Positions 1 through 17,908 of a DNA stretch of 45,982 nt are shown in pieces. The stretch is taken from the UHGV virus genome UHGV-0170246; one strand, written 5' to 3'. The notes below the pieces were generated by a model that made no database searches, was not told the DNA's origin, and worked only from the letters and a program-made list of their open reading frames with translations. Positions within the stretch are counted from its first letter, which is position 1; the number at the start of each line of letters is the position of its first letter. The stretch is from a virus. Both the position numbers and the translations under genes were made by a program.

Positions 1-38
1 TGGTTTTTCTGTAATGCGCCAGAAGCCTTGTTTATCGT

Positions 39-64
39 TTCCTGCAAACCGAGGTTTTTGCGAA
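39..64. other. gix/cix-like crossover site for a serine DNA invertase (TTCCTGCAAACCGAGGTTTTTGCGAA)
   Basis: Read from sequence; about 22/26 identical to the Mu gix site as I recall it; sits ~65 bp upstream of the invertase gene; nt 1-55 are the exact reverse complement of nt 45928-45982. Confidence 0.7.
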
Positions 65-128
65 TTGCCTCTGTGTCGTCTGAACGATATTTTTTCCCGC
101 TTTTAGCAACAATCGTGGTTTAGAAAGT

Positions 129-683
129 ATGCAATATGGTTATGCGAGGGTGTCAACTTTTGACCAGAATTTGGAATTACAACTGGAGGCGCTCAGGAGT
201 TCAGGATGTGACCGGATTTTTGAAGATAAAATATCCGGTGCTAAATCAAAACGACCAGGACTTGATAAGCTACTGAAGGTGTTACGACCGGGCGATACGG
301 TTATTGTCTGGAAGCTGGACCGAATGGGGCGTTCTCTGATTCATCTTGTTGATTTACTTAACCATTTTTTATCAAACGACATTGAGTTTATTTCGATTAC
401 GGAAGGGATAAAAATTAGCACTTCAATTGGCCGCTTTGCCTACACGATGCTGAGTGCAGTCGCAGAGATGGAGCGGGAAAATATGATTGAAAGAACGCGT
501 GCAGGATTGGCGGTGGCAAGGGCTAACGGCAGGATAGGAGGACGCCGCTCAAAGCTGGCACCAGAGCAATGGGAACAGATCGGAAGGCTTATTGCGAATG
601 GTGTTTCACGTAAGCGGATAGCGATTATCTTCGATGTTACCTTATCCACGCTTTACCGCAGGTTTCCGGCTGGGAATCATTGA
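129..683 (+). CDS. Serine recombinase, DNA invertase of the Gin/Cin/Pin/Hin family
   Basis: 184 aa; N-terminal YARVST..Q motif with catalytic Ser, GRIGGR and C-terminal HTH; close to phage Mu Gin from recalled sequence. Confidence 0.9.
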   Translation: MQYGYARVSTFDQNLELQLEALRSSGCDRIFEDKISGAKSKRPGLDKLLKVLRPGDTVIVWKLDRMGRSLIHLVDLLNHFLSNDIEFISITEGIKISTSIGRFAYTMLSAVAEMERENMIERTRAGLAVARANGRIGGRRSKLAPEQWEQIGRLIANGVSRKRIAIIFDVTLSTLYRRFPAGNH

Positions 684-805
684 CTGGAGTTAGGCCAGTA
701 GTATGATGCTCGCAAAACGAGATCCAATTTAGATCCTTTTACTGGTGGATTATCGTTCGATCAGTGAGAGACTTCGTGCATGACCGAAAGTGTTGTGGTA
801 GAGTT

Positions 806-834
806 CTCTTAAAACCACGTAAAGTGGTTATAAT
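806..834 (+). promoter_or_regulatory. Candidate repA promoter: perfect -10 TATAAT (829-834) overlapped by a repressor-type operator palindrome
   Basis: TATAAT read directly; -35 is weak; the palindrome at 813-829 abuts and overlaps the -10. Confidence 0.4.
813..829. promoter_or_regulatory. Operator-like palindrome AACCAC-N5-GTGGTT (AACCACGTAAAGTGGTT)
   Basis: Perfect 6-5-6 inverted repeat; same half-sites as the palindromes in the cI/cro-like intergenic region (10533-10652) and at 9781-9797. Confidence 0.55.
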
Positions 835-870
835 TGTGGGTGTCTGGTTGAAAAGTGACCAGATATGGAA

Positions 871-953
871 ACAAAAAGCCCGCAGATAAATCTGCGGGCT
901 TCTTGCGACATCCACGGAAAGGAAAACCAACAACTAACCATGGGCGCCTCGAC
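871..953 (-). ncRNA. Candidate CopA-like antisense RNA of the repA leader
   Basis: Minus-strand promoter (rc of 983-988 gives TTGCGT -35, 16-nt spacer, rc of 961-966 gives a perfect TATAAT -10) followed by a 9-bp GC-rich hairpin (877-900) and a U-run on the minus strand; geometry matches IncFII copA/copT, but coordinates are inferred. Confidence 0.4.
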
Positions 954-998
954 TACTCCCATTATACGTTGGTTTTCCGTGGACGCAAGAGCGAACAT

Positions 999-1847
999 AT
1001 GGATAGACCAATGCCGTCTCTACGTTCAGCTTACGTTTGTAATTTGTCGCCGGAGTTCCAGCCTCCAAAGCACCATACGCACAAGCTGCCGCTGGTGTTA
1101 TCTGATGCTTTACAGCGCATTAATGGTCGTGATCTTACGTGTGAGGTTGCGTTCTACGTTAATCAACCGTCAGAGCGGAAACGCCGGATAAACGAGCATC
1201 GTCGTCGGGCGATTAATGCTGTGATTGCTGCGATTTTGCACCATGTAAACATCATTTCTAAGCGGGTTCTGGCCAGTGCTGAGGCGTTGGCTGATTTTTG
1301 CGGCCTGTCTACCGTATCCGAAGCTGGGAACAAGTCTATAACGCGCTGTACAAGGGCGTTGTCGCAACTGAAAGAGTTAGGTTTTATTGATTATGAACGT
1401 CGCTGGGATCGGGTGAATAAACAGTATTGGCCAGCGAAAATCGAGATTCGTGATCAACTGCTGGAAACAGTTGGTATTACTGAACAAGCATGGAGACGTG
1501 CGGTTAGCCAGAAACTTAATTACTTCAATGCGAAGAATAGCGAACGGCTTAAAAAAGCGATAACGGAGGCTGATTATAAGCGTATTGTTATTCAGGAGCA
1601 GATGGAGAATGTATGGCGTCAGAGGAAGACGGCCAGAGAGATAAAGGCAAAACAGAAAGCAGCGGAGAGAGCTGCGCGTCTTGTTCAGGAAAAGGGAGAG
1701 GCCGAACTTCGTCATCAAATCACTAGAGAGGTTAGCCAGGAATTTGCTGATGGCATGTATCCTGGTGCTGACCTTGCATATTTACGCTCCCTCGTTGAGC
1801 AGCGTTATAACAGGCTAAGAAAGACCTGGAAATCACTCCAACATTAA
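999..1847 (+). CDS. repA: Plasmid replication initiator, IncFII RepA1-like
   Basis: In-frame ATG inside ORF 855-1847 gives 282 aa, close to RepA1 length; motif GLSTVSEAGNKSITRCTRALSQLKELGFIDY resembles the R100 RepA1 region as recalled. The GTG at 855 is probably an ORF-finder extension. Confidence 0.7.
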   Translation: MDRPMPSLRSAYVCNLSPEFQPPKHHTHKLPLVLSDALQRINGRDLTCEVAFYVNQPSERKRRINEHRRRAINAVIAAILHHVNIISKRVLASAEALADFCGLSTVSEAGNKSITRCTRALSQLKELGFIDYERRWDRVNKQYWPAKIEIRDQLLETVGITEQAWRRAVSQKLNYFNAKNSERLKKAITEADYKRIVIQEQMENVWRQRKTAREIKAKQKAAERAARLVQEKGEAELRHQITREVSQEFADGMYPGADLAYLRSLVEQRYNRLRKTWKSLQH

Positions 1848-1859
1848 CCCACCTGAATG

Positions 1860-2300
1860 ATGAATCCGGTTTTACCGGAGGATTATCTACGTCGCAATAA
1901 AATATCTGTTCAAAAAACAATCTAAATTAATTTTCTCTAAACCTGAACACAGCAAAAATATCGCCTTTACAGGTATCGGATAATAAAGTTATCCACAGTT
2001 TTGATATGTATATGCAAATGGTTTTTTATAATAGATGCACTAAACAAATAAATGCAAAATTACTTTCTTTTATTAAAACTTTCTTTATTTAACTTACGCA
2101 GGCTTTGCCTGTGAATATGTTCGCCCTTGCAGCGAGCTAAAGCTCGCGCCGGTTCGAGTCGCTACGCTCAAATATACCTCCTCCGGCACTTGCCGGAGGC
2201 ATGGAGCAGCCTGATCATCCTTTTCGAAACGGCGCGTTTCGAACTATACAAAATCAATTTATATAAGGCCGAAATAAGGCCTACGGCCGGGCTTTGCAGG
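1860..2300. other. Candidate replication origin (oriR-like): consensus DnaA box TTATCCACA at 1989-1997, AT-rich tract and several perfect palindromes
   Basis: DnaA box read directly; AT-rich 1920-2100; palindromes GCGAGCTAAAGCTCGC (~2132-2147) and TTCGAAACGGCGCGTTTCGAA (~2224-2244); position just downstream of repA as in IncFII replicons. Confidence 0.5.
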
Positions 2301-2490
2301 AGGAAGGGGCGAGCCTTATCAATAAACGTCGATAAATACGCACACAGTAGCCATCAGAACGCGATAAAACGTAAGAAACATCGTTTCCTATTAGACATAG
2401 AAAACTTGTCTTATACGCAATGTAGTAAATTTCTATTGCCACATAGGAAAAGATTTCCTACCATCGTAGATATAATAAATGGAGATGGTT

Positions 2491-2778
2491 ATGGATAAAG
2501 ATACTGTTTTAAAAATGTTGAATCCGGCTTGTTTAAAAAAAGCGGATGAATGGGAATCTCCTACATGTGGAGAAGTTCGGGCAGTCATTGGCCTGACCGG
2601 AATGAGCGGATCGCAGTTGGCCAAAAAACTTGGCTTAAAAGATAGTCGCAATGTTCGCAACTGGCAGATGTTAAAGGAGTCCACATCCAGATCCAGCATT
2701 CCGTATGCAGCCTGGGCGCTGCTGTGTTACTTCGCTGGGTTAGGGTTAATCTTCATTGATAACAAAACAGATGTTTGA
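2491..2778 (+). CDS. Hypothetical protein, possible HTH DNA-binding protein
   Basis: ORF 2479-2778; GGAG RBS 6 nt before ATG 2491; HTH-like segment GSQLAKKLGLKDSRNVRNWQ. Confidence 0.4.
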   Translation: MDKDTVLKMLNPACLKKADEWESPTCGEVRAVIGLTGMSGSQLAKKLGLKDSRNVRNWQMLKESTSRSSIPYAAWALLCYFAGLGLIFIDNKTDV

Positions 2779-2801
2779 AACATGCAAATATGAGGTTTGT
2801 T

Positions 2802-3065
2802 ATGGAACTTGTACGCAAAACACGCAAAGAGTTCTTGGACCTGTATCGCATGGGAGCTTTCACTTGTGTTGTGGCTACCCAGGACGAAGTGACAAAAAGC
2901 TGGCGGCTTTTTGCTCTCAATAAAAAAGGGATTGCCGTTTTCATTGAAAAAGCCCGTGGTGGTATCCGCGAATGGGCGGGATTGAATTATGTGGCTGATT
3001 TTTGCGCAGCTATGGGGATTCGTCGCTGGGAAGTCCATATGCCAGGAGTAAAGTCACAAAAATAG
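2802..3065 (+). CDS. Hypothetical protein
   Basis: ORF 2775-3065; GAGG RBS before ATG 2802; directly follows the HTH-like gene, so a possible two-gene module. Confidence 0.35.
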   Translation: MELVRKTRKEFLDLYRMGAFTCVVATQDEVTKSWRLFALNKKGIAVFIEKARGGIREWAGLNYVADFCAAMGIRRWEVHMPGVKSQK

Positions 3066-3303
3066 GGCTTTCGCGTCGAAAATGAGGCGAAACTGAAAAC
3101 GAGATTTCATTAACAAATAAGCAACATAAAAAACGGTGGAAAACGCCCAGGAAAACATGATCTTTTGAGCGGATTTTTTAGATCCGACAATGAACGGTGA
3201 TCCGGTGGTGCCGATAACGTCCATTATGTTAAATAGCCCCGTTTTTCTTGAAATTATAACCCACAGGTTATATAGTTAGTGATATAAACTACAGGTTATA
3301 GGA

Positions 3304-3657
3304 TTGAGCATGTGGACGGTACTTTTTAGCCAGCGATTTGACGACTGGCTAAATGAGCAAGAAGACGCTCTTCAGGAAAAGGTTTTGGCTGATTTGAAAA
3401 AGCTACAGGTTTACGGACCTGAGTTACCCAGGCCATATGCCGATACCGTAAAAGGTTCTCGGTACAAAAATATGAAAGAGCTTCGCGTTCAGTTTTCTGG
3501 CCGTCCGATAAGAGCCTTTTATGCGTTCGATCCGATTCGCCGGGCCATCGTTCTTTGTGCAGGAGACAAAAGTAACGATAAACGGTTTTATGAAAAACTG
3601 GTGCGTATAGCTGAGGATGAGTTTGCAGCACATCTGAACACACTGGAGAGCAAGTAA
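3304..3657 (+). CDS. RelE/ParE-superfamily toxin, HigB-like (phage Gp49-like)
   Basis: 117 aa; toxin precedes an HTH antitoxin with TAATGA stop/start overlap at 3655-3660; family assignment from recalled pattern. Confidence 0.6.
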   Translation: MSMWTVLFSQRFDDWLNEQEDALQEKVLADLKKLQVYGPELPRPYADTVKGSRYKNMKELRVQFSGRPIRAFYAFDPIRRAIVLCAGDKSNDKRFYEKLVRIAEDEFAAHLNTLESK

Positions 3658-3956
3658 TGAGAACATTAGATGAGGTGATTGCCAGCCGTTCACCTGAAAG
3701 CCAGGCGCGAATTAAAGAAATGGCAGATGAGATGATTCTTGAGGTCGGCTTGCAGATGATGCGTGAAGAACTCCAGTTATCACAAAAACAGGTTGCTGAG
3801 GCGATGGGTATAAGCCAGCCAGCAGTAACAAAGCTGGAGCAGCGCGGAAATGATTTAAAGCTGGCGACATTAAAGCGTTACGTTGAAGCTATGGGAGGCA
3901 AATTAAGCCTGGATGTTGAGCTTCCCACAGGAAAACGAATAGCGTTTAACATCTGA
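3657..3956 (+). CDS. HTH XRE-family antitoxin, HigA-like
   Basis: 99 aa; HTH segment LSQKQVAEAMGISQPAVTKLE; translationally coupled to the upstream toxin. Confidence 0.6.
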   Translation: MRTLDEVIASRSPESQARIKEMADEMILEVGLQMMREELQLSQKQVAEAMGISQPAVTKLEQRGNDLKLATLKRYVEAMGGKLSLDVELPTGKRIAFNI

Positions 3957-3971
3957 TCAGAACGAATGATA

Positions 3972-3997
3972 AGCCCCTGTTGCAAAGGGGCTTTTTT
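3972..3997 (+). terminator. Rho-independent terminator
   Basis: 7-bp stem AGCCCCT/AGGGGCT with a 7-nt loop followed by TTTTTT. Confidence 0.65.
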
Positions 3998-4003
3998 GTG
4001 CTC

Positions 4004-4119
4004 ATAGAATTATATAATTATATATTTATATAAAAAATGCTTTACAGGTGGGAAAAAATTTCCTAAGGTTATAACCGAAACCGAGCGATACCCGCCCTGG
4101 TTAAACCGGAGATAACCCG
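4004..4119 (+). repeat. Conserved promoter/leader cassette, copy A (AT-rich repeat, TTTACA -35 at 4041-4046, ~70-nt leader, GGAG RBS)
   Basis: Near-identical to 13072-13190 and 20695-20812; ends at the ATG of the downstream gene. Confidence 0.7.
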
Positions 4120-4500
4120 ATGAGCATGATTAAAATCCGCAAAAATGCTTTCCTTAAAATTCAAACTATCCTGGCTGGTTCTGTTGGCGTGATTTGCCGT
4201 TCTTCTTCAAGCCGCATCGATGACGGCTACGATGATGAGTACCGTGTGTCCTCGTGCGATGAGGCTTTAACCTGGCTGAAGGAGAATCAGGAACGTGCCC
4301 AGGTATATCTGGAAACAGAGAACGGCAATCAGATGCTGCGTATTAGCGGTCGTTATGGATTTGAAACTACATTCATGGCCTATTTTAATCAGGCTTACTT
4401 TGACAAGGAGCTGGCCTGGTACACTGATCGCATGAGCAAAAGCGAGCCAGCCCCGATTACACCGCCGAACAATAAACCATTTTTATTCCTCGTTAAGTAA
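4120..4500 (+). CDS. Hypothetical protein, first gene after cassette A
   Basis: 126-aa ORF with GGAG RBS inside the conserved leader. Confidence 0.5.
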   Translation: MSMIKIRKNAFLKIQTILAGSVGVICRSSSSRIDDGYDDEYRVSSCDEALTWLKENQERAQVYLETENGNQMLRISGRYGFETTFMAYFNQAYFDKELAWYTDRMSKSEPAPITPPNNKPFLFLVK

Positions 4501-5645: not shown

Positions 5646-6791
5646 TTATGGTCTGCTTTTCTGTGCCAGCTTATCAGCACATGTTTTTATCAGATCCTGT
5701 AGTGTCCTGGCTGGCAGGTTTGCATCCAGTACGCTGAGTATGCTGTTGTGTTCTGCTTGGTCGACTACTTTGCCTGTCGGTGGTAGTAGCTTGAGCTGAG
5801 GATTCAGGTTTTCGTCAAAGCTGATAAGTGCTCTGGCGTTTCTGAGCAGATCAAGAAGTAAGGCTGATATCACATTTTCCTGAGTCATTGCTGGCAGACT
5901 TAGCGCCGCTTTGGTTTTCCCTGTTGCCTTGTCAAACTCCTTGATTAGTTCCTTCCTGTAGTTCGGTTCCGTTAATAGCCGATTATGCTCTGTTGCCGCG
6001 CGGATAATCGTTTTTTCCTGGTATAGTCGTTTAGCCAGATCACGCTCGTACTGTGTTTTTAACACGCTGCTGATAGCGTTAAAGGCTTCAATGTAGGCCA
6101 GCTTGATATCTTTCACGCTTGGACCGTCGATGCTCTCCATGAGCAAGGTAAATCCGTCTTTTGTCATGCGATAGATTGTTATTTCGCGGTCGCTTCCTTC
6201 CAGCGGTCGTTGCTCTTTAAAGAAGTGACGCGCCGCAGCTGTGCGAGGAATGCGTAACGCATCGATGGCCATAACGATGGAATTGTTTGTGGTGCTGAAT
6301 GCCTGGGCAACATCGGCTGAGGTTGTGAGTGGCTCGTTGTTGCACACCTTAATGTAATACATTGGTTTAGCGTTGAGCGTATCGACAACCTCACGAGCAT
6401 TGTTTGGTGAGACGGTTACGGTCGCGGCCGTTTGCGCGTTCTGGTTGAAGTAGCAGTCTTCCAGCCGTTCGAATACATCCCACGCCTGATCGGTTTCGAG
6501 CATTTTAGCGTGACGTGCAGCCCCGCGTTCTGTCCAGAGGATGAGGGAGCGGACTTTAGGTGAAACTGGATTTTGAGAGTAGTTTAAAGCTACCCGCAAT
6601 TCTTTAAGGTCATTACCAACAACTTTGAAAAAGTGTTTCCCTTCAACGAAACGTGCTTTGTTCTCATGATGATTCTGGCGAATACGCACCGGCTCAGTGC
6701 CGTAAAGCTGTGCTAGTAACTCGGTAGTAATGACAGGGATTTGGTTATGCAGGATAGGCTGTAGGGTGTTAACGGTCGGAAGCGTTTTCAT
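5646..6791 (-). CDS. Antirepressor-like protein (ORF6N-type N-terminus, Rha-like central region)
   Basis: 381 aa; N-terminal pattern PVITTELLAQLYGTEPVRIRQNHHENKARFVEGKHFFK and internal TTSADVAQAF segment typical of phage Ant/Rha-type regulators (recalled domain patterns). Confidence 0.55.
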   Translation of the reverse strand: MKTLPTVNTLQPILHNQIPVITTELLAQLYGTEPVRIRQNHHENKARFVEGKHFFKVVGNDLKELRVALNYSQNPVSPKVRSLILWTERGAARHAKMLETDQAWDVFERLEDCYFNQNAQTAATVTVSPNNAREVVDTLNAKPMYYIKVCNNEPLTTSADVAQAFSTTNNSIVMAIDALRIPRTAAARHFFKEQRPLEGSDREITIYRMTKDGFTLLMESIDGPSVKDIKLAYIEAFNAISSVLKTQYERDLAKRLYQEKTIIRAATEHNRLLTEPNYRKELIKEFDKATGKTKAALSLPAMTQENVISALLLDLLRNARALISFDENLNPQLKLLPPTGKVVDQAEHNSILSVLDANLPARTLQDLIKTCADKLAQKSRP

Positions 6792-6979
6792 TTTGCACCT
6801 CCCATAACTACTTTGGTTACGAGGGAGATTTTTGCGTCAGAAACAGCGTTATCGTTGCTGGCGATGCGCATAGCTTCGCGCTCGATGATTTCAGCCAGGC
6901 GGAATTTATCGGCGTATGAGGCTTTCTTGAGAAGGATCTTTACGAGGTTGACGTAATAGTCATGGGGTAAGTTTGTCAT
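6788..6979 (-). CDS. Small hypothetical protein, first gene of the antirepressor operon
   Basis: 63-aa ORF; its stop overlaps the antirepressor start (ATGA). Confidence 0.35.
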   Translation of the reverse strand: MTNLPHDYYVNLVKILLKKASYADKFRLAEIIEREAMRIASNDNAVSDAKISLVTKVVMGGAK

Positions 6980-7394
6980 GGTGATAGTTCCCTTAAAGGT
7001 TAAGGATACTCACCACCGTCTGGTTCCAATCATTGGGTGGTGAGACGTACAGGGTTGGAACTACCGGTCACCATGGAATCCGGCGAGTCTTACGACTCCC
7101 CCGCACGCCCCACCATAATTTGGGTGTAGCAGTGCTTTACGCATAAAAAAACCGCTAACGCGGTATGCGCCATGATGATTATCGGGGTTCCAATCCCGAC
7201 CGTAGATTTTGCTACGGCTCGGAAAGTGTCCACCAATGGCGCATTTATGTCAATACAGAGGGATTTTAACAGAGACAACCACATAGCGTGGGTTTATTGG
7301 TAGGCAGAAACAAAAAAACCGCCCTATTGAGGACGGTTCTTTCGTGCTGATCGGATTCGCGGTCCTTTCAGCATAACGTCGTTGTACTAATACA

Positions 7395-7414: not shown

Positions 7415-7644
7415 AACTACATTCTTACCCAACTGAGGTGAATAGTCCACTATTCATATAAAAAAATTTAGCTCATTAGCTCATGCAAAATGAAGGTTTT
7501 TAACTTATTTACGTGTAATCTCATGTAATAAAAGCGTTTTTTATTCCTTCATTATGAAGGGTATGACGTGTAATATGGCTTGGGGCCTTTCCGCCGATTC
7601 GCACCCGGGCACTGACTTTCAGGAAAGGATTATCCACTTGCCGT

Positions 7645-7664
7645 ACCACGCAGGCACAAACAGC
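7645..7664. repeat. Direct repeat copy 2 (ACCACGCAGGCACAAACAGC)
   Basis: See copy 1. Confidence 0.6.
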
Positions 7665-7728
7665 GTGCTTGCTCTCGCGTCATTTTCGTCGGTGGGGATG
7701 CCGTGAAACGGCCTGTAAGGGCCACACA

Positions 7729-7851
7729 ATGAAAAAATACTACATGTGTATTTTTATCGTTGTTACTGGAGCTTTGTTTACGCCACATGGGGAGGGTTGG
7801 AAGATTACTGATAACGCTCTGAATGTGACGATAAACATTAGCAGCAAGTAG
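7729..7851 (+). CDS. Possible small hydrophobic peptide (40 aa)
   Basis: In-frame ATG of ORF 7669-7851; one predicted transmembrane stretch (YYMCIFIVVTGALF); followed at once by a strong terminator; no recognisable family. Confidence 0.2.
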   Translation: MKKYYMCIFIVVTGALFTPHGEGWKITDNALNVTINISSK

Positions 7852-7856
7852 CGATT

Positions 7857-7880
7857 AGGCCCCTTCGGGGGCCTTTTTTA
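7857..7880 (+). terminator. Rho-independent terminator
   Basis: 7-bp stem AGGCCCC/GGGGCCT with TTCG tetraloop followed by TTTTTT. Confidence 0.75.
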
Positions 7881-8276: not shown

Positions 8277-8525
8277 TTACTTCTGGTTGTATTGAGCCTT
8301 GAGTAACTCAAAAGATTTTGTCAGCACTTCTTTCAATGACATATCCATTGAACTGGCGAACGTTTTGTACTCGCGTTTAAATTCAGGGTCGACGTTAAAC
8401 GCCATTTGTGCCCCACCTGATTTGGTTCTGGTTGGCGTTTCAGTCGGGTCGAAAACCTGCGGTTGTTCGATCGATGGCGGTACGCCTTTGCTGTTCTTCT
8501 TTGGTGGTTTTGATGGTGCGGCCAT
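8277..8525 (-). CDS. ParG-like ribbon-helix-helix centromere-binding protein
   Basis: 82 aa, immediately downstream of parA; unstructured basic N-terminal tail and C-terminal RHH-like segment (FNVDPEFKREYKTFASSMDMSLKEVL). Confidence 0.6.
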   Translation of the reverse strand: MAAPSKPPKKNSKGVPPSIEQPQVFDPTETPTRTKSGGAQMAFNVDPEFKREYKTFASSMDMSLKEVLTKSFELLKAQYNQK

Positions 8526-8537
8526 GTGTATCCCCTC

Positions 8538-8570
8538 TTATATAAATCTATAAAACTATAATTATATATT
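8538..8570. repeat. AT-rich motif locus (TATAAATCTATAAAACTATAATTATATATT) downstream of parG
   Basis: Member of the dispersed TATAATTATATA(AAT) motif family. Confidence 0.55.
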
Positions 8571-9237
8571 ACGCGGCAGTAGTCAGAGCCTCAAGCTGGT
8601 TGATAATCCCCTGAATAACGTCGTCTGCCTTTTTGCGTGGCGCAACGTATGAGCATTCAATGAGGCTTAAGCCCTTATCCTGAGCTTTGCTCAGAGCTGG
8701 CTTGTGGGGAATGTACTTATCGACAACAAAGTATGGCGTATTAGCCAGGTACTCTTGGGCTTCAATATAGTCAGCTTCATTTTCAGCCGCGCCGGAAAAC
8801 ACCATGCAAATTTTCTTGATTGGCACACCCTTTTTAACGATGCCGTGAGCAGTGTTAACGGTGGTTTCCAGGTCATCGGTAGAGAATCGGGTTGGCAAAA
8901 TAACCATATCCAGAAATTCAGATAGCTTCGGTACTGATTCAGATGCGTAGGCACCGCCATCAACGATAACCAGGTCGTATACTTCTGATTCGATGATTTT
9001 CTGGACTTGTGATGGTGTGCCGCACGGCTGCGCCGCGATTGCTGGTTCGATATTGTTGGCCATTCTGCGTTGTACCCAACGCGTTACCGTTCCGTTAAGC
9101 ACATCCATATCGATCAGGCATACATTCCAGCCAGCCTTTGCATAAGCAACTGCTAAAGCACGGGCAATTGTTGATTTGGTTACGCCGCCTTTTCCGTTGA
9201 AAATACCTACAGAGATAGTCATTTGTCGAGACTCCAT
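8569..9237 (-). CDS. parA: ParA-family partition ATPase (small type Ib ParA/ParF-like)
   Basis: 222 aa; deviant Walker A GKGGVTKST near the N-terminus; followed by a small RHH protein gene. Confidence 0.8.
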   Translation of the reverse strand: MESRQMTISVGIFNGKGGVTKSTIARALAVAYAKAGWNVCLIDMDVLNGTVTRWVQRRMANNIEPAIAAQPCGTPSQVQKIIESEVYDLVIVDGGAYASESVPKLSEFLDMVILPTRFSTDDLETTVNTAHGIVKKGVPIKKICMVFSGAAENEADYIEAQEYLANTPYFVVDKYIPHKPALSKAQDKGLSLIECSYVAPRKKADDVIQGIINQLEALTTAA

Positions 9238-9246
9238 GTGTTTGGT

Positions 9247-9350
9247 TATATAATTCTATAAATCTATATTTATAGAACGAGGTAAGCATAACCAACTTTT
9301 TGGCGGATGGAAAGTGTTTTATATAATTATATAAATCTATAATCATATAA
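9247..9350. repeat. Two AT-rich motif blocks upstream of parA (candidate par promoter/centromere)
   Basis: TATATAATTCTATAAATCTATATTTATAGA and TTATATAATTATATAAATCTATAATCATATAA read directly. Confidence 0.55.
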
Positions 9351-9797: not shown

Positions 9798-9839
9798 TTT
9801 TTTGAGCGTAGAAATGCACGGCTTTCGCCGTGCTGTGTA

Positions 9840-10496
9840 TCATAACCAGTTGACAACACTAACTACGCGGCCAAGAACTTTATAACGCTTAAATTCCTCG
9901 TTATTCAGATGCTTAGTGTTCATTTCAGCATCCCTTTCGGTTGACAGCATAACAGCATTGTCACCCGGTATGACTCTACAGTGCCTCAAAACAACCAGGC
10001 CATTTCTGTCTTCAAGGGCATAGATCCCCTCATGAATCTCTGTATCGTCTGTATTAATCAGGACTTGGGAGCCAGGGGATATTGTTGGTGACATTAACTC
10101 ATCGTTGCTCTGGAGAACTGACAGAGACGATGGGTTGATGTTCTTGCTTCGTAGAATCTCCTGTTCTATCGCCAGCACTGGCTTTTCTCCGGCGTGCGAT
10201 GCTATGTCATTTTTTATAGCTACAAGCCCAGGAATAACAGGAGCGTTAGTATTCTGGGGTGGGAACGGGTTATCTGTTAAGCACGCGATATAAGGCGCTG
10301 ATGCTTTCAGGGCGTGCGCGATTTTCTTGATGGCAGGTATCGATGGTTGTCTTAATCCGGCCTCATAGTTCTGCAAGGTGCTTAAGCCTATTCCAGTGAC
10401 TTGCTGGAGATCTCCGGCAGTCATGCCGGATTGTTTCCGTAGAGTCTGAATGCGCAGACCTATTTCTTTCTTGATGTTCTCGTCGTTGCTTTTCAT
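9840..10496 (-). CDS. CI-like phage repressor (N-terminal HTH, C-terminal LexA/S24-like domain)
   Basis: 218 aa; HTH TAGDLQQVTGIGLSTLQNYEAG; C-terminal region has the overall S24 pattern but the GxSM catalytic motif is not obvious on hand alignment. Confidence 0.75.
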   Translation of the reverse strand: MKSNDENIKKEIGLRIQTLRKQSGMTAGDLQQVTGIGLSTLQNYEAGLRQPSIPAIKKIAHALKASAPYIACLTDNPFPPQNTNAPVIPGLVAIKNDIASHAGEKPVLAIEQEILRSKNINPSSLSVLQSNDELMSPTISPGSQVLINTDDTEIHEGIYALEDRNGLVVLRHCRVIPGDNAVMLSTERDAEMNTKHLNNEEFKRYKVLGRVVSVVNWL

Positions 10497-10670: not shown

Positions 10671-11165
10671 ATGACCTTTCAGGAGTGGGTTGACGAAAAT
10701 GGAGGCCAAATTGGTGTTGCCAGAAAGTTTGGCTTTACGTCATCACTGATTGGTGCCTGGTATCGCTTCGAGAGATTCCCTCGTGCGGATAACCTGACGC
10801 TGCTGGTGGCGTATTCGGAAGGCCGGATTAACGTCCAGCAATGGGCGGCAGATTTTGCCGAACGTCAGCGCCAGCGTAGCGATGGCACATCGGTTCGGCA
10901 GAACAAGATCAAAGGGAATCTCCCTGTTAACTGCTTATCAAGGCTGAAAGCGGTTTTCTCTGAGCTGGGGATGCCTGCGGAGCGTTGCAATCTACGCGGT
11001 CCGCGATTCATTGCTCGCTGGAAACACTCACACGTAACCGTTTCAGAGGTTCGTGATGCGATTACCGTGCTGGAGCTTAAGAATAAAGATTCCAGCGATA
11101 TCGAGCTGATTCATAAGGAGATTAGCAACGCCCGGCGTTCAGCACTTGGGAGGCTTGAGGAATGA
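10671..11165 (+). CDS. Putative HTH regulator, first gene of the rightward early operon (Cro/CII position)
   Basis: 164 aa; divergent from the repressor across the operator cluster; function is by position only. Confidence 0.35.
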   Translation: MTFQEWVDENGGQIGVARKFGFTSSLIGAWYRFERFPRADNLTLLVAYSEGRINVQQWAADFAERQRQRSDGTSVRQNKIKGNLPVNCLSRLKAVFSELGMPAERCNLRGPRFIARWKHSHVTVSEVRDAITVLELKNKDSSDIELIHKEISNARRSALGRLEE

Positions 11166-11677
11166 TGATTCTGGCCTTCTTTGGTGATAATCACCAGATT
11201 CAATCGCAGGTGGTGCACTACCTTGATCAAACGATTAAAGGATTTGTTATCGATCATATTGATAACGATAGCAAACATCTATCTGTAGATCAGAAAATTG
11301 GACGTGTGCAGCGACTGGTTGCCAGCCGTAACAGACGTGACACCGTAACAGTAGTCACGGGGATAACGGAGGTCATGGAGTACCAGATGTTGCTGCATCG
11401 TGGAGCTGTTTTCTGCGTTCTTCCTGGCATTCTGCCAGCAATTCTTGCTCGTGGTTTTGTCCCTATTGATGAGTCGTTTTTATATGTAACCCCAAGCCGT
11501 TCCCTTCTGGATACGGAGGCGAAGCGTCGCATTTATATGATGCCGGACGAGGCATTTTCTGAATGTTACCGCCGTGAAATGAGGTTGGGTAAACGAGAAG
11601 TGTCTGTTGTTCGTGATGGCAGGTTTTTAAGAAGCCGCACGGTGAAAAGCACCAGAAATGACGGGGGCCATCAATGA
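11162..11677 (+). CDS. Hypothetical protein
   Basis: 171-aa ORF; ATGA overlap with the upstream gene. Confidence 0.45.
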   Translation: MMILAFFGDNHQIQSQVVHYLDQTIKGFVIDHIDNDSKHLSVDQKIGRVQRLVASRNRRDTVTVVTGITEVMEYQMLLHRGAVFCVLPGILPAILARGFVPIDESFLYVTPSRSLLDTEAKRRIYMMPDEAFSECYRREMRLGKREVSVVRDGRFLRSRTVKSTRNDGGHQ

Positions 11678-11907
11678 GTAGTTATGTTCGCGGTGCTGCG
11701 ATGCATTGCCAGAATCCCCAATTCTGGCGCTTTCTGACCAGTAAAACAGGGAAGAACGTTTCAAACAGTTCTGAGGCCTCTGTGATTCTGCGTGAGTTTT
11801 GCGGGATCTCATCCCGTAAAGAGCTGGCAAAGAACTACGCGGCCAGAAGCATGTATGTCCAGTTAATCAACGAGTTCAACCTCTTTATCAATGGTAAGGG
11901 GCGCTGA
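11674..11907 (+). CDS. Hypothetical protein
   Basis: 77-aa ORF in an operon of overlapping reading frames. Confidence 0.35.
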   Translation: MSSYVRGAAMHCQNPQFWRFLTSKTGKNVSNSSEASVILREFCGISSRKELAKNYAARSMYVQLINEFNLFINGKGR

Positions 11908-12311
11908 TGAACGGACGTACACCAACGAAGAAAGAGAAACTTTATATACAAGCGGTGCTCACTCACGTGGGTTGCATAGCTTGCATTATTGATGGCCGTG
12001 AAATTGAGAATCCAGAGCTGTGGACGGAGCTACATCACGATCCTGATTACGGCAGCGTTGATGAGAATTGCCACTTTCATAGCTTTGGATTGTGCGCACC
12101 ACATCATCGCGGTGTTGTGCCTGGTGGTGGGCGCGTGCCTCCGCATATCGCCGTTCGTCACCCTCCCCTGAGTAATTGTGCTCGCTTTGTTGAGCGTTAT
12201 GGCACCGATGAATTTTTGTGTGCGCAGACGTGGGAGCTGTTGCCGCAGTCAGTTAAAGACGAAATTGGGTTTGATCTTAGTCTTGGTGAAGTACCAGGGG
12301 ATACCAAATGA
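11907..12311 (+). CDS. Putative HNH-type nuclease, Ref-like
   Basis: 134 aa; Cys/His-rich with paired HH motifs (ELHHDPDYG, CAPHHRG) and GCIACI; resemblance to the P1 Ref/DUF968 family is a recalled pattern. Confidence 0.35.
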   Translation: MNGRTPTKKEKLYIQAVLTHVGCIACIIDGREIENPELWTELHHDPDYGSVDENCHFHSFGLCAPHHRGVVPGGGRVPPHIAVRHPPLSNCARFVERYGTDEFLCAQTWELLPQSVKDEIGFDLSLGEVPGDTK

Positions 12312-12640
12312 GATATACCGGCTTTCGCAAACCAGCGACCAGGAAAAGCAAATACGGCAATAAAAAAACGGTTGTCGATGATATCGCTTTTGATAGCAAA
12401 AAAGAGGCTGATTACTACTGCGAACTGAAGTTACTGAGAAAAGCTGGCCGCGTTGTGACGTTTCTTATGCAGGTGCCTTTTCATCTGCCTGGTGGTGTCG
12501 TTTATAAACTTGATTTCATGGTGTTTTATGACGATGGGACGATTGATTGTGTCGACACTAAAGGTGTGCGAACAGACGTCTACATCATGAAGAAAAAGCA
12601 GGTAGAGGCGCTTTATCCCGTCACGATACGGGAGATCTGA
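12308..12640 (+). CDS. DUF1064-like phage protein
   Basis: 110 aa; N-terminal RKSKYGNKKT..DDIAFDSKKEADYY pattern recalled as characteristic of DUF1064. Confidence 0.45.
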   Translation: MRYTGFRKPATRKSKYGNKKTVVDDIAFDSKKEADYYCELKLLRKAGRVVTFLMQVPFHLPGGVVYKLDFMVFYDDGTIDCVDTKGVRTDVYIMKKKQVEALYPVTIREI

Positions 12641-12643
12641 ACA

Positions 12644-13021
12644 GTGAGACGCGATCTGGATAGCTTGTTTGAGCTATGGGCGCTGTGGGTGCGCAATGGC
12701 TGCAACGCCCGTAGCGGTTTCGCGTCGATGTTAGAAATGATGATGGTTACGCGTTGCCAGTTTACCGGAGGGGGCGGCGCACCAAATGACTCACTGGAAA
12801 CCAGTATCGAGGGAGCTGTGACGGCCCTCACGGTAGTTGATGAGACTGCGGCGCTGGTTGTCCGAATTGAATACGGGGCGTGGGAGATTCGGGGCCTCGA
12901 CATAAATGCACCGCATATTGATAAAGCCCACGCCCTTTCTCTTAGTCTCAGACAGTATCGCCGGAAGCTGGCAAAAGCCAGGGCGTATGTTGTCGACTAT
13001 TTGAAAAAGCGAAGAGAGTGA
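12644..13021 (+). CDS. Possible Q-like antitermination protein
   Basis: 125 aa; N-terminal LWALWVRNG resembles the WGAW region of one Q family; weak and from memory only. Confidence 0.25.
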   Translation: MRRDLDSLFELWALWVRNGCNARSGFASMLEMMMVTRCQFTGGGGAPNDSLETSIEGAVTALTVVDETAALVVRIEYGAWEIRGLDINAPHIDKAHALSLSLRQYRRKLAKARAYVVDYLKKRRE

Positions 13022-13071
13022 AAGTGTCATTTTGAGCTGTTTTGATGGTGTGTAGACATCGGGAACATCGA

Positions 13072-13190
13072 AAATCTATAAATATATAATTATAGATTTA
13101 TATAAAAAGTGCTTTACAGGTGGGAAAAAATTTCCTAAGGTTATACCCGAAACCGAGCGATACCCGCCCTGGTTAAACCGGAGAAATCTG
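13072..13190 (+). repeat. Conserved promoter/leader cassette, copy B (TTTACA at 13113-13118)
   Basis: Near-identical to cassettes A and C; ends at ATG 13191. Confidence 0.7.
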
Positions 13191-14258
13191 ATGAATAAAC
13201 AAGTAATTATTTCTGACTGGATCAACAACCCTAACAGCCTGTTAAGCACTGATACTGGCTACCTATTACGCCATGTTAATGGTCGTATGGTCAAAAGCGA
13301 TGAGCACGAAACCTTTTTCTTTGTTGAAGACGATGGGCGTATCTATGAGGATGGTTACTCTTATGAAGCCCAAACTGGTTGTATCCCTGCGGAGCTGGTG
13401 GACGTAACAGAAGATCTGCGCAAAGCATGGCTTGAACAGCAGCAGCGCGGAGATGATTACGTAAACACCTATCAGGAACGCCAGAACGCGCGTCTTGCCC
13501 GATATATTGCTCGTGCAGAAAAAGCCAGAAAAGAAGGTGCGGTAGCGCATAAGCGAGCGCATGACCTGTTGGATGTGATCCCGTTAGGCCAGCCGATTTT
13601 AGTTGACCATTATAGCGCGAAAGGCCATCGCCGCCGTTTGTCTAAAGCTGATGCGTTATTCAGAAAAGCGTTTGTTGAATGCGAAAGTAAAGCATCACAC
13701 TACGAGAGCAAAGCCGCAGGTGTTGGTCGTAATGGAATTTCGTCTGATGATCCTGATGCGCTATTTAAGTTGCTTCGTAAGCTGCAAGGCTGCATGAAGT
13801 CACACGTCAAAATGAAGGCAGCAAATAAGGCCATTCGCAAATACAAAAAAGACCAATTACAGCAGCTTTCTGCATTAATCGATCTCAGGTTTACAGAAAG
13901 CGAAGCCAAAGAGTTACTGGCCGGAGATTTCTGTGGGCACATCGGATTCCCTTCATACGCACTGAGCAACAATAAGGCCGAAATCAAACGACTACAGAGC
14001 CGTATTAAGGAGCTTGAATCGGTCAAGTCTGTAACAGGAGCACAGCGCGAAGAATACGACGGCTTTTCTATGGAGATAGATCCAGAGGATAACCGCATCC
14101 TGTTTTATTTCCCTGGCAAACCAGAGGCAAACATTCGTTCGCTGCTTAAATCACGCGCCTTTAAGTGGAGTCCAACCCGTAATGCATGGGTTCGCAAGAT
14201 TACTCCAAACGCCCTGGCTGATGCCCGATATCTGAAAGAATCGCTATTGAAAGCCTGA
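13191..14258 (+). CDS. Hypothetical protein (355 aa), first gene after cassette B
   Basis: Long ORF with GGAG RBS in the conserved leader; family not recognised. Confidence 0.5.
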   Translation: MNKQVIISDWINNPNSLLSTDTGYLLRHVNGRMVKSDEHETFFFVEDDGRIYEDGYSYEAQTGCIPAELVDVTEDLRKAWLEQQQRGDDYVNTYQERQNARLARYIARAEKARKEGAVAHKRAHDLLDVIPLGQPILVDHYSAKGHRRRLSKADALFRKAFVECESKASHYESKAAGVGRNGISSDDPDALFKLLRKLQGCMKSHVKMKAANKAIRKYKKDQLQQLSALIDLRFTESEAKELLAGDFCGHIGFPSYALSNNKAEIKRLQSRIKELESVKSVTGAQREEYDGFSMEIDPEDNRILFYFPGKPEANIRSLLKSRAFKWSPTRNAWVRKITPNALADARYLKESLLKA

Positions 14259-14288
14259 CAGTAAGCCTACGGCGGGATATCTCCCGCC

Positions 14289-14320
14289 GTATATAGAATT
14301 ATATATTTATATAAATGTAT
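14289..14320. repeat. AT-rich motif locus (TATATAGAATTATATATTTATATAAATGTATA)
   Basis: Shares the ATAGAATTATATA core with cassettes A and C. Confidence 0.5.
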
Positions 14321-14335
14321 AAGGACGCCTCGACA

Positions 14336-14617
14336 ATGAAACGCAAAATTATTAACCCCCAAGATGTGATTAATTTCCTGACCGATCACCCATGTTCAAA
14401 AGTGGACGTAATCGCGGAGCACATTGGTGTGTCGCAGAACTCTATGCGTTGCAGACTGAGAAGCATGGTTGCCGAAGGACAGATAACAACCAGGAAAATA
14501 AATGGTTGCCTGTACTACTCCGCTAAACCGGAATTGCCATTTGGCATGAATCCTAACTCCATGTTGTTTAACACCTTATTAGCCAAAGTTAAGCCGTTGA
14601 GAGGGGCTGTGGCATGA
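14336..14617 (+). CDS. Hypothetical protein, possible winged-helix DNA-binding protein
   Basis: Internal ATG of ORF 14315-14617. Confidence 0.35.
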   Translation: MKRKIINPQDVINFLTDHPCSKVDVIAEHIGVSQNSMRCRLRSMVAEGQITTRKINGCLYYSAKPELPFGMNPNSMLFNTLLAKVKPLRGAVA

Positions 14618-14979
14618 GCATCAAAACCCATACCGGAATAATCATTACCAATGATGGTGAGAAAAGAGTGAAGTTGCGCGAAACGCCGACAACCTGGTGT
14701 GTTGGTCCGAAAGAAACATATCGCAAGGAAGATGGCCGTCGTTGTGGGGCACCACTTTCCCGCCGTCGCCTCCTTTTGAGCACGATAAAACCTATCGGGC
14801 AGGTTGAGCAACCAACGACTCCGGTAACGAAGATTTCAGACAAGAGTCTGGCAAACCTGATCGCCGATGCGGACAAGGTGCTGGAGCGGAACACCCCCGT
14901 TGCAGATGAGGAATGGTGGCAGGATTTCCGAGCCGCAATGCTAGAGCTTCAGGAACGTCGTCGGGAGGAGTTGAAGTGA
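14614..14979 (+). CDS. Hypothetical protein
   Basis: 121-aa ORF; ATGA overlap with the upstream gene. Confidence 0.4.
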   Translation: MSIKTHTGIIITNDGEKRVKLRETPTTWCVGPKETYRKEDGRRCGAPLSRRRLLLSTIKPIGQVEQPTTPVTKISDKSLANLIADADKVLERNTPVADEEWWQDFRAAMLELQERRREELK

Positions 14980-15167
14980 GCAAGAAAAATGCCGGATGGG
15001 TCAGGCCAATGAAGGCGAATAAACATCATTATTTTAATGAAGGTGAAGTAACCAGCATTTGCGGCCGTTGGATGTATTTTGGTGATTACCGTGAGCCAGA
15101 CACTTTTGAGAGTCCTGATGATTGCGTGTCTTGTCGCCGGAAATTGAACAAGGTGGCTTCTAAATGA
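14976..15167 (+). CDS. Small Cys-rich hypothetical protein
   Basis: GTG start overlapping the preceding stop; CxxxxC and CxxC pairs (CGRW, CVSC). Confidence 0.3.
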   Translation: MSKKNAGWVRPMKANKHHYFNEGEVTSICGRWMYFGDYREPDTFESPDDCVSCRRKLNKVASK

Positions 15168-15856
15168 AAGAACGTGGTGTTGTTTTTAATGACGATATGG
15201 TTAGGGCCATCCTCGAAGGAAGGAAGACGCAGACTCGCCGACCTGTAAAAAATGTCAGGGCCGATAACTGCCTGGTTATCCGTAAACCGACAAAGAAACG
15301 CAATGGTGTCTATACCCACGTTATGGATGCACCTGAACATGGTTTATGCCCGTTCGGTAACGTTGGTGATCGCATATGGGTCCGTGAGGCGTGGGCGATA
15401 TTAGGCAATGAGGATGGTTGCAGTGTGGACTGGAACGACAACCTTTGTCGTGGCGATGAGAAGAACGCAGCAAGGATTTATCGGGCCAGTTGTGAGCAAA
15501 AGCCGGGTGATTACGGCTTATGGTCGATACCCGATGATGCCGACTGGAAACCTCACACTGTGAATGAAAAGTTTGATGGCGGGTGGCGTCCATCAATTCA
15601 CATGCCGCGCTGGGCTTCGCGTATTTTGCTGGAAATTACCGACGTGCGTGTGGAACGGCTGCATGACATGAGCGAGGCAGATGCTAAAGCGGAAGGCGCA
15701 TCTCCGGCGACGTACAAGATTACACCGCCGGAAGCTGTTTATCGCGTTGGCTTTGGTGATATCTGGCGCGGTATTTACGGGCAAGAGAACTGGCTATCTA
15801 ACCCGTGGGTATGGGTAATTGAGTTTAAACGTATTCAGGGGGCAACCAGTGAGTAA
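15164..15856 (+). CDS. ASCH-like domain protein
   Basis: 230 aa; N-terminal MVRAILEGRKTQTRRP and GDRIWVREAW resemble the ASCH/PUA-like fold pattern (recalled). Confidence 0.4.
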   Translation: MKERGVVFNDDMVRAILEGRKTQTRRPVKNVRADNCLVIRKPTKKRNGVYTHVMDAPEHGLCPFGNVGDRIWVREAWAILGNEDGCSVDWNDNLCRGDEKNAARIYRASCEQKPGDYGLWSIPDDADWKPHTVNEKFDGGWRPSIHMPRWASRILLEITDVRVERLHDMSEADAKAEGASPATYKITPPEAVYRVGFGDIWRGIYGQENWLSNPWVWVIEFKRIQGATSE

Positions 15857-16106
15857 TTCCGCACGGCTACAGCTTGGTTTTTCACCGCTATCAAAAACCA
15901 TCGTGTTGGCCAAAATGCGCGATTTAGGTGACGGAACAAAACGCCGTGTAGGCAATGATCGCGGTCGTGATGTAACCAACGAGGCCGCACAACTCGTTTG
16001 GCATCTTGTCATGGCAGAATGCGGTGAAATCAATTGGGAGCTGGATGATGATTCTCGCATGGTGTTAAGGGCAGAAAAGCAGGGGGCAAACGATGAAAAA
16101 CCGTAA
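15849..16106 (+). CDS. Hypothetical protein
   Basis: ORF 15819-16106; GTG at 15849 preferred because of the AGGGGG RBS; start uncertain. Confidence 0.3.
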   Translation: MSNSARLQLGFSPLSKTIVLAKMRDLGDGTKRRVGNDRGRDVTNEAAQLVWHLVMAECGEINWELDDDSRMVLRAEKQGANDEKP

Positions 16107-16281
16107 AGCAAAGATTCTGTTAGTTCGTAGAAACGCTCCTGGCGTCTGGCAGTGGGTGAGACTCAGCAACCGACGGATGGGGTTGATGAAATATTACGGG
16201 ATGATGGATTGTGGTTTTTGCAAAAAGCCCAGCGCGGCGCAAAACCGCTGGAAAAACCACTTGCGCAATAAAGGAGAGTGA
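16093..16281 (+). CDS. Small hypothetical protein
   Basis: 62-aa ORF with AGGGGG RBS; overlaps the upstream stop. Confidence 0.3.
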   Translation: MKNRKAKILLVRRNAPGVWQWVRLSNRRMGLMKYYGMMDCGFCKKPSAAQNRWKNHLRNKGE

Positions 16282-16282
16282 T

Positions 16283-16648
16283 ATGGCACTGACGAAAAAA
16301 CAACGTGCAGAGCTGCGCATGAAGTTCGGCGGTCGCTGTGCTTATTGTGGCTGTGAACTTGGCGAAAAGTGGCATGCAGACCATGTAAAACCGGTCATTC
16401 GTTTTGCTGGAAATATGCTTCACCAGGAACGTGACGATATATCCAACATGGTTCCGGCATGCCACCCATGCAATCTGCACAAGCATTGCAGCAGCCTGGA
16501 AGATTATCGGCGAATTATCAGTGATGGTCGTCGTGAATTCCTTGCGTCCGGGAAAGGCAAAGCGCTGGTTCGTATGGGATTGGTTGAAATGAAATCTGAC
16601 CCGGTTGTGTTCTGGTTTGAAAAATATCAAGAAGGGGCTACGGCATGA
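16283..16648 (+). CDS. HNH endonuclease
   Basis: AAGGAGAG RBS before ATG 16283; CAYCGC..HADHVKP..CHPCNLHKH is a classic HNH Zn-finger layout. Confidence 0.7.
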   Translation: MALTKKQRAELRMKFGGRCAYCGCELGEKWHADHVKPVIRFAGNMLHQERDDISNMVPACHPCNLHKHCSSLEDYRRIISDGRREFLASGKGKALVRMGLVEMKSDPVVFWFEKYQEGATA

Positions 16649-17157: not shown

Positions 17158-17158
17158 T

Positions 17159-17566: not shown

Positions 17567-17908
17567 GCTGTAGTGAGAAGCCATGCGCTTACGAGCAGTA
17601 TTCAGATATTCAGAGCGGGTAATGAAGCACATACAACCGAAAACATGGCAGAAACTGGACTTTATGGGAGTTAAGTTGGAGAAGATTACTCAACTTAAGC
17701 AGTGGCATATTGGCGAATATTATGGAAGTCCTGGTCGGGATGTTCGTTTGGTAAAAAGTTGAGTATTGTTTTTTTATTGATCAATTAACCACAGAGTGAA
17801 GGTTTTTTTATGGGAAAGCCTTGTTTTAGGTGGTAACTGGGTGTAGTGTTTCATTTAACGTAGTAAAACTGCGTTAAGCGATTACCGCGTAATTTGTTGC
17901 TTTATGAA

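Follow-up and report, generated by a model that had tools for sequence, protein, structure and literature searches.

How is a complete phage genome maintained in its host when it encodes no recognisable integrase? The question is raised by UHGV virus genome UHGV-0170246, a stretch of 45,982 nucleotides (nt; the window, by which we mean this whole stretch) that contains a replication initiator gene, repA (1011-1847), followed by a candidate origin (~1860-2300). A first-pass annotation of positions 999-2300, made from the sequence alone, had proposed an extrachromosomal prophage kept as a low-copy plasmid. Our analysis leads to a similar answer. We consider it very likely that the element is a temperate myovirus with a Mu/P2-like tail that is maintained as an autonomous circular plasmid in Enterobacteriaceae, and that positions ~680-2300 form its basic replicon, which is distantly related to the IncFII (R1/NR1) theta replicons.

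The window was collinear around the whole circular plasmid NZ_CP009073.1 of Escherichia coli ATCC 25922 (48,488 bp), the sole gap being plasmid bases 9247-12204, which fall exactly between the end of the window and its start. Both ends are copies of a perfect 55-bp inverted repeat (left copy 1-55, right copy 45928-45982), which matches the "inverted repeat" of the Mu/D108 invertible segment (G segment) and corresponds to the crossover sites of a Gin/Hin-type invertible tail-fibre segment. Because the contig ends coincide with these repeats, the assembly break is explained, and judged by this comparison the window is a complete circle minus a ~3-kb invertible tail-fibre segment. The gene adjoining repA (129-683, + strand) encodes a serine DNA invertase of the Hin/Gin/Pin type rather than an integrase (Pfam Resolvase E=3.6e-44, plus HTH_7), with 89.7% nt identity to pin of phage SJ46. 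The annotation of NZ_CP009073.1 lists holins, an endolysin, terminase, portal, protease, capsid, tail, tape measure, baseplate and tail fibres, so that the full lysis, head and tail modules claimed by the first-pass annotation are present. Its statement that integrase and transposase are lacking also held: neither occurs in the RefSeq annotation of NZ_CP009073.1, and Pfam and PHROG scans of the non-structural open reading frames (ORFs) of the window found no tyrosine integrase or transposase domain, including in 14980-17590, a part of the window that is unlike the ATCC 25922 plasmid.

Relatives of the element were found as plasmids and as virions. Bases 1-4200 of the window share 98-99% identity with approximately 50 complete ~48-kb plasmids, mostly from E. 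coli, and Yersinia phages vB_YpM_39, vB_YpM_41 and vB_YpM_44 (49 kb; isolated on Yersinia pestis EV76) are 98.7% identical, repA included. A search of 5,426 complete E. coli genomes with segment 684-3300 gave 122 matching places spread over 107 genomes; every one of these places belonged to a plasmid, and no chromosome was matched. In 69 genomes (~1.3%) the match extended over 80% or more of the segment. PLSDB holds 62 plasmids with the leader/repA segment, 44-52 kb in size, all predicted to be non-mobilizable and most of them circular (58 from Escherichia, three from Salmonella and one from Klebsiella), and in a large protein collection the exact RepA cluster comprises 525 member sequences on 505 contigs. 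Plasmid-only occurrence combined with three virion isolates identifies the element as a phage-plasmid. The proposed extrachromosomal state is thus borne out by the chromosomal and plasmid counts, by the circular plasmid NZ_CP009073.1 and by the virions, and chromosomal integration, which would have contradicted it, was seen at none of the places matched.

The 278-residue product of repA (+ strand) belongs to the IncFII_repA family. It matched Pfam PF02387 with E=3.2e-44 over profile positions 2-272 of 275, and NCBIfam NF040977 (RepA_IncFII_LM) with 233 bits against a cut-off of 70; profile searches therefore uphold the call of a RepA1-like, IncFII-like initiator. Identity to the R1-type RepA of pEC_L8, the IncFII plasmid used as control, is 40% across 105 core residues, and RepA homologues of the clade are 274-283 residues long. 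Comparison of repA between the window and L009 (the Salmonella plasmid pAR-0407-1) gave a nonsynonymous divergence (pN) of 0.085, a synonymous divergence (pS) of 0.74 and a dN/dS ratio of ~0.03, values indicating that the gene is under strong purifying selection and that its synonymous sites are saturated. No solved structure was found for the window RepA, and no relatives were confirmed in a scan of GTDB species-representative genomes.

Within the clade, the RepA of L021 (9855-10852), which is 63% identical, is encoded on a plasmid with a VirB-type type IV secretion system (T4SS), while L020 and L022 (60% identity) show phage synteny, with a Mu-like tail, repA, toxin-antitoxin, Rha antirepressor, ParA and cI. 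The nearest RepA relative outside the clade (36% identity) is located on an Enterobacter T4SS plasmid. By these comparisons, the RepA clade is not phage-restricted and its replicon module is common to phages and conjugative plasmids. In L020 and L022 the antisense module and repA are separated by a second, truncated RepA-like ORF (L020 9516-10004, 162 residues; L022 ~9823-10014, ~60 codons from ATG); the arrangement has the appearance of a recombinant replicon, with an old control region joined to a new repA.

The repA ORF, which lies in the frame of position 855 and ends at 1847, offers ATG codons at 999 and 1011. While ATG 999 is confined to the E. coli lineage, ATG 1011 is conserved across lineages, and L009 and L010 possess only its equivalent. 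The RefSeq model produced by the Prokaryotic Genome Annotation Pipeline (PGAP), a 326-residue RepA starting near 865, was rejected: strain indels upstream of 940 measure 2, 5, 6 and 9 nt, and its frame is broken between strains by those of 2 and 5 nt. Because these upstream indels shift the frame, the long start cannot be right. The PGAP proteins of 326-327 residues (WP_228465520.1 and relatives) start ~146 nt before the conserved ATG, and their extension spans the antisense element described below.

The region downstream of repA was compared in six lineages, namely the window, L009, L010, L020 (Citrobacter), L022 and L021, among which RepA identity falls to 58-62%, with pEC_L8 as control. Just after the repA stop codon stands a hairpin, CCGGT-TTT-ACCGG, followed by an invariant GGAGG (1864-1882, + strand), and then an A-run, TTCAAAAAAC (1908-1917, + strand). 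The motifs C.GGAGG and AAAAAA are invariant in 7/7 aligned sequences, pEC_L8 included, and the hairpin stem covaries (CCGG/CCGG versus CCAG/CTGG); by analogy, the hairpin and GGAGG may correspond to the "CIS" region of R1. The consensus DnaA box reported by the first-pass annotation, TTATCCACA, lies on the + strand at 1989-1997 as described, inside a conserved block, GTTATCCACAGTTTT. The sequence TTATNCACA occurs once in the 46-kb window, with ~2.3 occurrences expected by chance; as this count is at chance level, it is position and conservation that carry weight. The box stands 142 nt past the repA stop in the window and likewise at +142 in L009 (as TTATTCACA) and L010, and at +133 and +132 in L020 and L022, so that a distance of 132-142 nt is kept in five lineages.

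Beyond the DnaA box, the origin core (1998-2098, + strand) contains an AT-rich tract preceded by three conserved blocks, TATATGCAAATGGTTTT, GATGCACTAAA and ATAAATGCAAAATTACTTTCTTTTA, to which RepA may bind. GC content is 21-29% over 1900-2100, in agreement with the AT-rich tract claimed previously, and drops to 21% at 2000-2099, where a 15-nt direct repeat (2062-2076 / 2078-2092) is found; this tract is a candidate unwinding region. The order of elements is shared by all six lineages: the hairpin and GGAGG are followed by TGTATAAAAAAC, ~60 variable nt, GTTATCCACAGTTTT (+132 to +142), TATATGCAAATGGTTTT, GATGCACTAAA, ATAnATGCAAAATCACTTTCTTTTAA, an AT-rich spacer, CAG-stem-CTGTGAATATG, and finally CCCTTGCAGCG, a hairpin and CGCGCCGGTTCG. 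Since synonymous sites are saturated, conservation of these blocks across lineages with pS of 0.74-0.9 indicates that they are under constraint.

A cluster of GC-rich hairpins (2099-2300, + strand) follows the AT-rich tract. It comprises the hairpin CAGGC-TTT-GCCTG (2099-2111, + strand), whose stem covaries, perfect palindromes of 7+7 (2132-2147), 9+9 (2180-2199) and 9+9 (2223-2243), which are the several perfect palindromes noted in the first-pass annotation, and GGCC repeats (2268-2290). In 2132-2147, the inner stem exists in four versions, each of them fully compensated (AGC/GCT, GAC/GTC, GCG/CGC and ACG/CGT). Folded as single-stranded DNA, the cluster gives z=-2.7 on either strand and resembles the post-oriR region of pEC_L8; by analogy, its hairpins are candidate signals for single-strand priming or primosome loading. 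Two further proposals for the origin region were rejected. An "ATGCA" RepA-box motif occurs in the window at chance level and is not supported as an iteron, and DNA-level homology to R1 oriR was discarded, the best local alignment being not significant (z~2.3); this alignment moreover places the IncFII post-stop hairpin opposite 2181-2214 instead of 1864-1882. The resemblance of the origin to IncFII is, as far as sequence comparison goes, architectural.

Upstream of repA, a promoter-like sequence on the + strand, TTGACT-16-TATGAT (680-707; TTGACT-16-TATCAT in L009), overlaps the invertase stop codon and is a candidate promoter of the repA leader. Within this leader, positions 865-998 form a structured element that we predict to be transcribed from the minus strand as a countertranscript, with a long 5' hairpin, a conserved apical loop (antisense GAGUnGUCGAGG) and, after it, a terminator hairpin (878-899) with a U-run (869-877). 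The minus strand of 865-998 folds with z=-7.5 to -8.3. A covariance model built from seven sequences recovered the element at full length in the Citrobacter-type L020 and L022 (E~1e-12), in which both stems are completely different. In an eight-sequence alignment, 96.3% of cells are paired, compared to ~45% when partners are slid, and compensatory change is seen at 19/44 pairs, a number reached by 0/500 shuffles. A leader peptide starting from ATG 940, in the hairpin loop, was considered and rejected; it has no Shine-Dalgarno sequence, its end varies over 32-84 codons and the ATG is absent from L020 and L022. In L021, the same-clade relative on a T4SS plasmid, the countertranscript is a hairpin with a U-run and a UUGGCG target loop, and the leader has a CGCC close to the start codon.

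While these features together support an RNA-controlled, IncFII-like replicon, a number of results weigh against it. With the strict equivalog model TIGR03474 (incFII_RepA; cut-off 446.9 bits), the window RepA scores 82 bits and the RepA of pEC_L8, the control, 581.5 bits, and a local-alignment shuffle test of the origin DNA against R1 oriR was not significant (z~2.3). The Rfam CopA model (RF00042) gave no match at E<=1 in the window, L009 or L010, compared to 106.3 bits in the IncFII control (L014/pEC_L8). No tap-like leader ORF is conserved across lineages, and no copB-like gene was seen; from the invertase stop (683) to the start of repA, a distance of ~330 nt, there is no conserved ORF. 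The putative minus-strand promoter is weak, with only TTGCGT as its -35 element, and was not reported by a consensus scan. Finally, the covariation figures flatter the structure, because the alignment was fitted to the model and represents only ~4 independent lineages. With respect to other leader features, Rfam PK-repZ and related models gave no match, and an upstream ORF meets the repA start only in L010 and L020 (TGA overlapping the ATG in both) and in L022 (a few codons past the start).

Alternatively, the hairpins of 865-998 could act in cis only, attenuating transcription or translation from within the repA leader, with no antisense RNA being made and copy number being set otherwise, for example by RepA autoregulation. 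No strong consensus promoter was found on the minus strand, Watson-Crick covariation fits a helix on either strand, and minimum free energy (MFE) modelling indicates that the leader can refold over the region before the ATG: blocking of its 5' arm and loop releases the 3' arm, which in five of five lineages then pairs just before ATG 1011. As a route of inhibition, refolding of the leader is speculative. The polarity of the element, however, argues for a minus-strand RNA. Only on the minus strand does a U-run come after the terminator hairpin (the plus-strand tail reads UUCUUGCG), the commonest pair at seven positions is a G-U on the minus strand that would be C-A on the plus strand, and in 8/8 sequences the fold of the minus strand is 3-10 kcal/mol more stable than that of the plus strand. 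Furthermore, the minus-strand sequence TTGCGT-16-TATAAT (988-983 / 966-961) is conserved in all lineages, and its perfect TATAAT is kept even in L020 and L022 (TTGCAT-18-TATAAT), where both stems have changed; such a promoter would yield an RNA of ~90 nt from near 953, an RNA of ~130 nt being equally possible. Given in addition the hairpin and U-run countertranscript of L021, which is of the classic form, we judge it improbable that the leader acts in cis only.

The palindromes of 2099-2300 might also have no part in the origin and act for a neighbouring function instead, whether as terminators, as protein operators or as a centromere-like site. Palindrome 2180-2199 does score as terminator-like on the minus strand, DNA likeness to the region after R1 oriR is not demonstrable, and a priming role is pure analogy. 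Nevertheless, the palindromes travel with repA and the DnaA box in 6/6 lineages, including the T4SS plasmid L021, while the downstream genes differ; the combination of covarying stems with variable loops is more in keeping with a folded single strand than with a protein operator; and no convergent gene end is present there. We therefore regard a function outside the origin as unlikely. A more radical alternative is that the element is an integrating prophage, with repA and the origin being a relic or used in lytic growth only and the "plasmid" records being excised or mis-assembled circles. The window is indeed a linear contig without circular closure, and its psi/dif-like XerCD site (3207-3234) could in principle permit Xer-mediated integration at chromosomal dif, in the manner of integrative mobile elements exploiting Xer (IMEX). 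This is largely refuted by the absence of chromosomal places in the complete E. coli genomes, and the plasmid records in PLSDB are 62 independent entries, mostly circular. No integrase was found, repA is under strong purifying selection, partition and toxin-antitoxin modules would have no role in an integrated element, and the assembly break is explained by the invertible-segment repeats. We consider an integrating prophage scarcely credible.

Under the favoured explanation of an autonomous phage-plasmid with an IncFII-like replicon, repA would be transcribed with a ~300-nt leader, and the minus-strand countertranscript, ending at the 869-899 terminator, would pair with this leader, thereby reducing RepA synthesis and setting copy number. 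RepA would then bind, probably in cis, to the conserved blocks beside the DnaA box and, together with host DnaA, open the 21%-GC tract, after which host DnaB and DnaG would prime, possibly at the covarying hairpins of 2099-2300, for unidirectional theta replication. Stable inheritance would be completed by the XerCD site, a higBA-type addiction module and a type Ib-like ParA system. The sequence comparisons themselves establish that RepA belongs to its family, that the layout of the origin is conserved, that the RNA is structured and that the element occurs on plasmids only; we infer binding of RepA and DnaA, action in cis, priming at hairpins, inhibition by RNA and low copy number by analogy with R1 (PMC5883639). 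The R1 basic replicon consists of oriR (188 bp), repA, copA, copB and tap, with the CopA antisense RNA holding down translation of RepA; binding of DnaA to its box requires RepA to be bound directly next to it, and replication is unidirectional theta (PMC5883639).

Neither Pfam nor PHROGs revealed a recognisable second replication initiator, helicase or polymerase in the window. The early region (10671-17566) contains a Ref-like nuclease, DUF1064, an HNH endonuclease, several proteins of no assigned function and a DUF3560 protein with a weak match to a primase PHROG. It is conceivable, though in our estimation doubtful, that RepA and its origin are the only initiation system of the phage, so that one origin would serve both copy-controlled maintenance and lytic amplification, the latter through escape from a leader-refolding countertranscript that is not CopA. 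If this were true, the phage would contain a built-in "runaway replication" switch and the RNA would constitute a new Rfam family.

Comparison with known systems places the window replicon close to IncFII R1/NR1 in layout. Both have a RepA of the same Pfam family (40% core identity), an origin downstream of repA, a hairpin with GGAGG and an A-run after the stop codon (seen in the window and in pEC_L8), a single DnaA box at the repA-proximal edge of the origin (+142 in the window versus +176 from the repA stop in pEC_L8) followed by an AT-rich tract and GC-rich hairpins, and a repA-leader countertranscript, predicted in our case, that ends in a hairpin and U-run. In contrast to R1/NR1, the window RepA falls below the strict equivalog (82 versus 447 bits), its RNA is unmatched by Rfam CopA and has the target loop GCCUCGACnACU rather than UUGGCG, neither a conserved tap-like ORF nor copB is present, similarity of the origin DNA is not significant, and the replicon is carried by a phage instead of a conjugative plasmid. 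By this analogy it would work like IncFII while standing outside the strict IncFII group. The IncB, IncI-alpha and IncL/M replicons (RNAI/Inc RNA, leader peptide and pseudoknot) share with it a match to NF040977 and a mode of control, predicted in our case, by a single countertranscript, and the clade relative L021 has the UUGGCG loop and CGCC near the start codon that are typical of that group; the window lineage, however, lacks the UUGGCG loop, a conserved leader ORF and an obvious pseudoknot partner.

Among phage-plasmids, the element was compared with P1 (IncY RepA/iterons, ParAB, Cre-lox, immI c4-icd-ant), SSU5/pHCM2, D6 and N15. As in this group, a temperate tailed phage without integrase persists in plasmid form and has modules for replication, partition and addiction. 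P1 shares in addition an immunity region with C4 antisense RNA and antirepressor, and an invertible tail-fibre segment with a Cin/Gin-type invertase. The present element differs from P1 in that it is half the size, its replicon is IncFII-like and, by inference, RNA-controlled rather than iteron-controlled, and it apparently uses host XerCD at a psi/dif-like site in place of Cre-lox.

The Xer site consists of a psi/dif-like core, GGTGCCGATAA-CGTCCA-TTATGTTAAAT (3207-3234, + strand), with 2 mismatches to the dif arms; by our own calculation ~1e-5 such sites are expected by chance in the window. The core is conserved downstream of repA and the origin in five lineages (the window, L009, L010, L020 and L022) and is preceded by ~150 bp of candidate accessory sequence (3057-3206), and 3057-3274 shows 87-89% identity to otherwise unrelated 24-35 kb E. 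coli plasmids. Judging from these sequence features it is probably a multimer-resolution site, which would account for multimer resolution without a Cre-like enzyme. Downstream, 3304-3956 (+ strand) encodes a HigB/RelE-type toxin of the Gp49 family (E=5.7e-23) and a helix-turn-helix (HTH) antitoxin (HTH_3, E=3.9e-10), a call that agrees with the RefSeq and phage annotations and makes this pair a candidate module for post-segregational killing.

The type Ib partition operon that the first-pass annotation had placed beside RepA does exist in a type Ib-like form, its adjacency to RepA excepted. It occupies 8277-9350 on the minus strand, 6.4-6.7 kb from repA, with the toxin-antitoxin pair and the immunity region in between, and consists of ParA (8569-9237, 222 residues), a partner of 82 residues (8277-8525) and, upstream, AT-rich repeats (9246-9350). 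ParA matched Pfam CbiA/ParA/MipZ and a ParA-like PHROG (E=2e-39), and scored 78.5 bits with NF041546, below the cut-off of 180; profile searches gave no family match for the 82-residue partner. The ORF at 9840-10496 is a CI-like HTH/S24 repressor and not ParA. Taken together, the partition, toxin-antitoxin and Xer modules suggest a low copy number.

Several further features of the window were observed. A P1 immI-like immunity region is located at 5646-7231 on the minus strand, with a C4 antisense RNA at 7033-7120 (84 bits), isrK and c4 targets at 7145-7231, and ORF6N and Rha antirepressor genes at 5646-6791. Between this region and the partition operon lies a full-length match to the Rfam ryfA RNA (7581-7879, + strand; 134.6 bits versus a gathering score of 80). 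Three near-identical promoter/leader cassettes of ~115 bp (4003-4123, 13078-13195 and 20695-20817) each stand just before an operon; they carry TTTACA-17-TAAGGT with the palindrome GGGAAAAAATTTCC and end in GGAGA(T)AA-4 nt-ATG. A similar sequence, AGGAAAAGATTTCCTA, occurs at 2443-2460, right after the origin and upstream of the ORF at 2479-2778, and it is probable that this site and the cassette palindromes are operators of one phage regulator. In L018 (p853EC2, NZ_CP040921.1), a family member without the invertase gene and invertible segment, repA directly follows the tail-fibre assembly gene and a "transferase", an arrangement suggesting that the junction between tail-fibre genes and repA is a site of variable cargo.

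Phage-plasmids are well known, as are IncFII-type replicons, and near-identical elements are present in RefSeq with repA named. A literature search found no published description of the ~48-kb family, which is also absent from the ten typed phage-plasmid groups of PMC7969092 and of the tyPPing preprint (10.1101/2025.08.29.673033); pSLy3 was considered as a name for the group and rejected, being a 114-kb SSU5-like element. What is added here is the predicted countertranscript, a conserved origin map, a corrected start codon and the Xer site. Carriers include ATCC 25922, the universal control strain for susceptibility testing, and replicon typing assigns no type to the ~48-kb element. The corrected map (RepA 1011-1847, countertranscript 865-998, origin ~1860-2300, Xer site 3207-3234) could serve as a marker for surveillance and typing, and offers a candidate incompatibility determinant and a compact mini-replicon. 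More broadly, the element would add an RNA-controlled, IncFII-like replicon to the known modes by which phages persist as plasmids, and it illustrates how one replicon clade passes between phages and conjugative plasmids.

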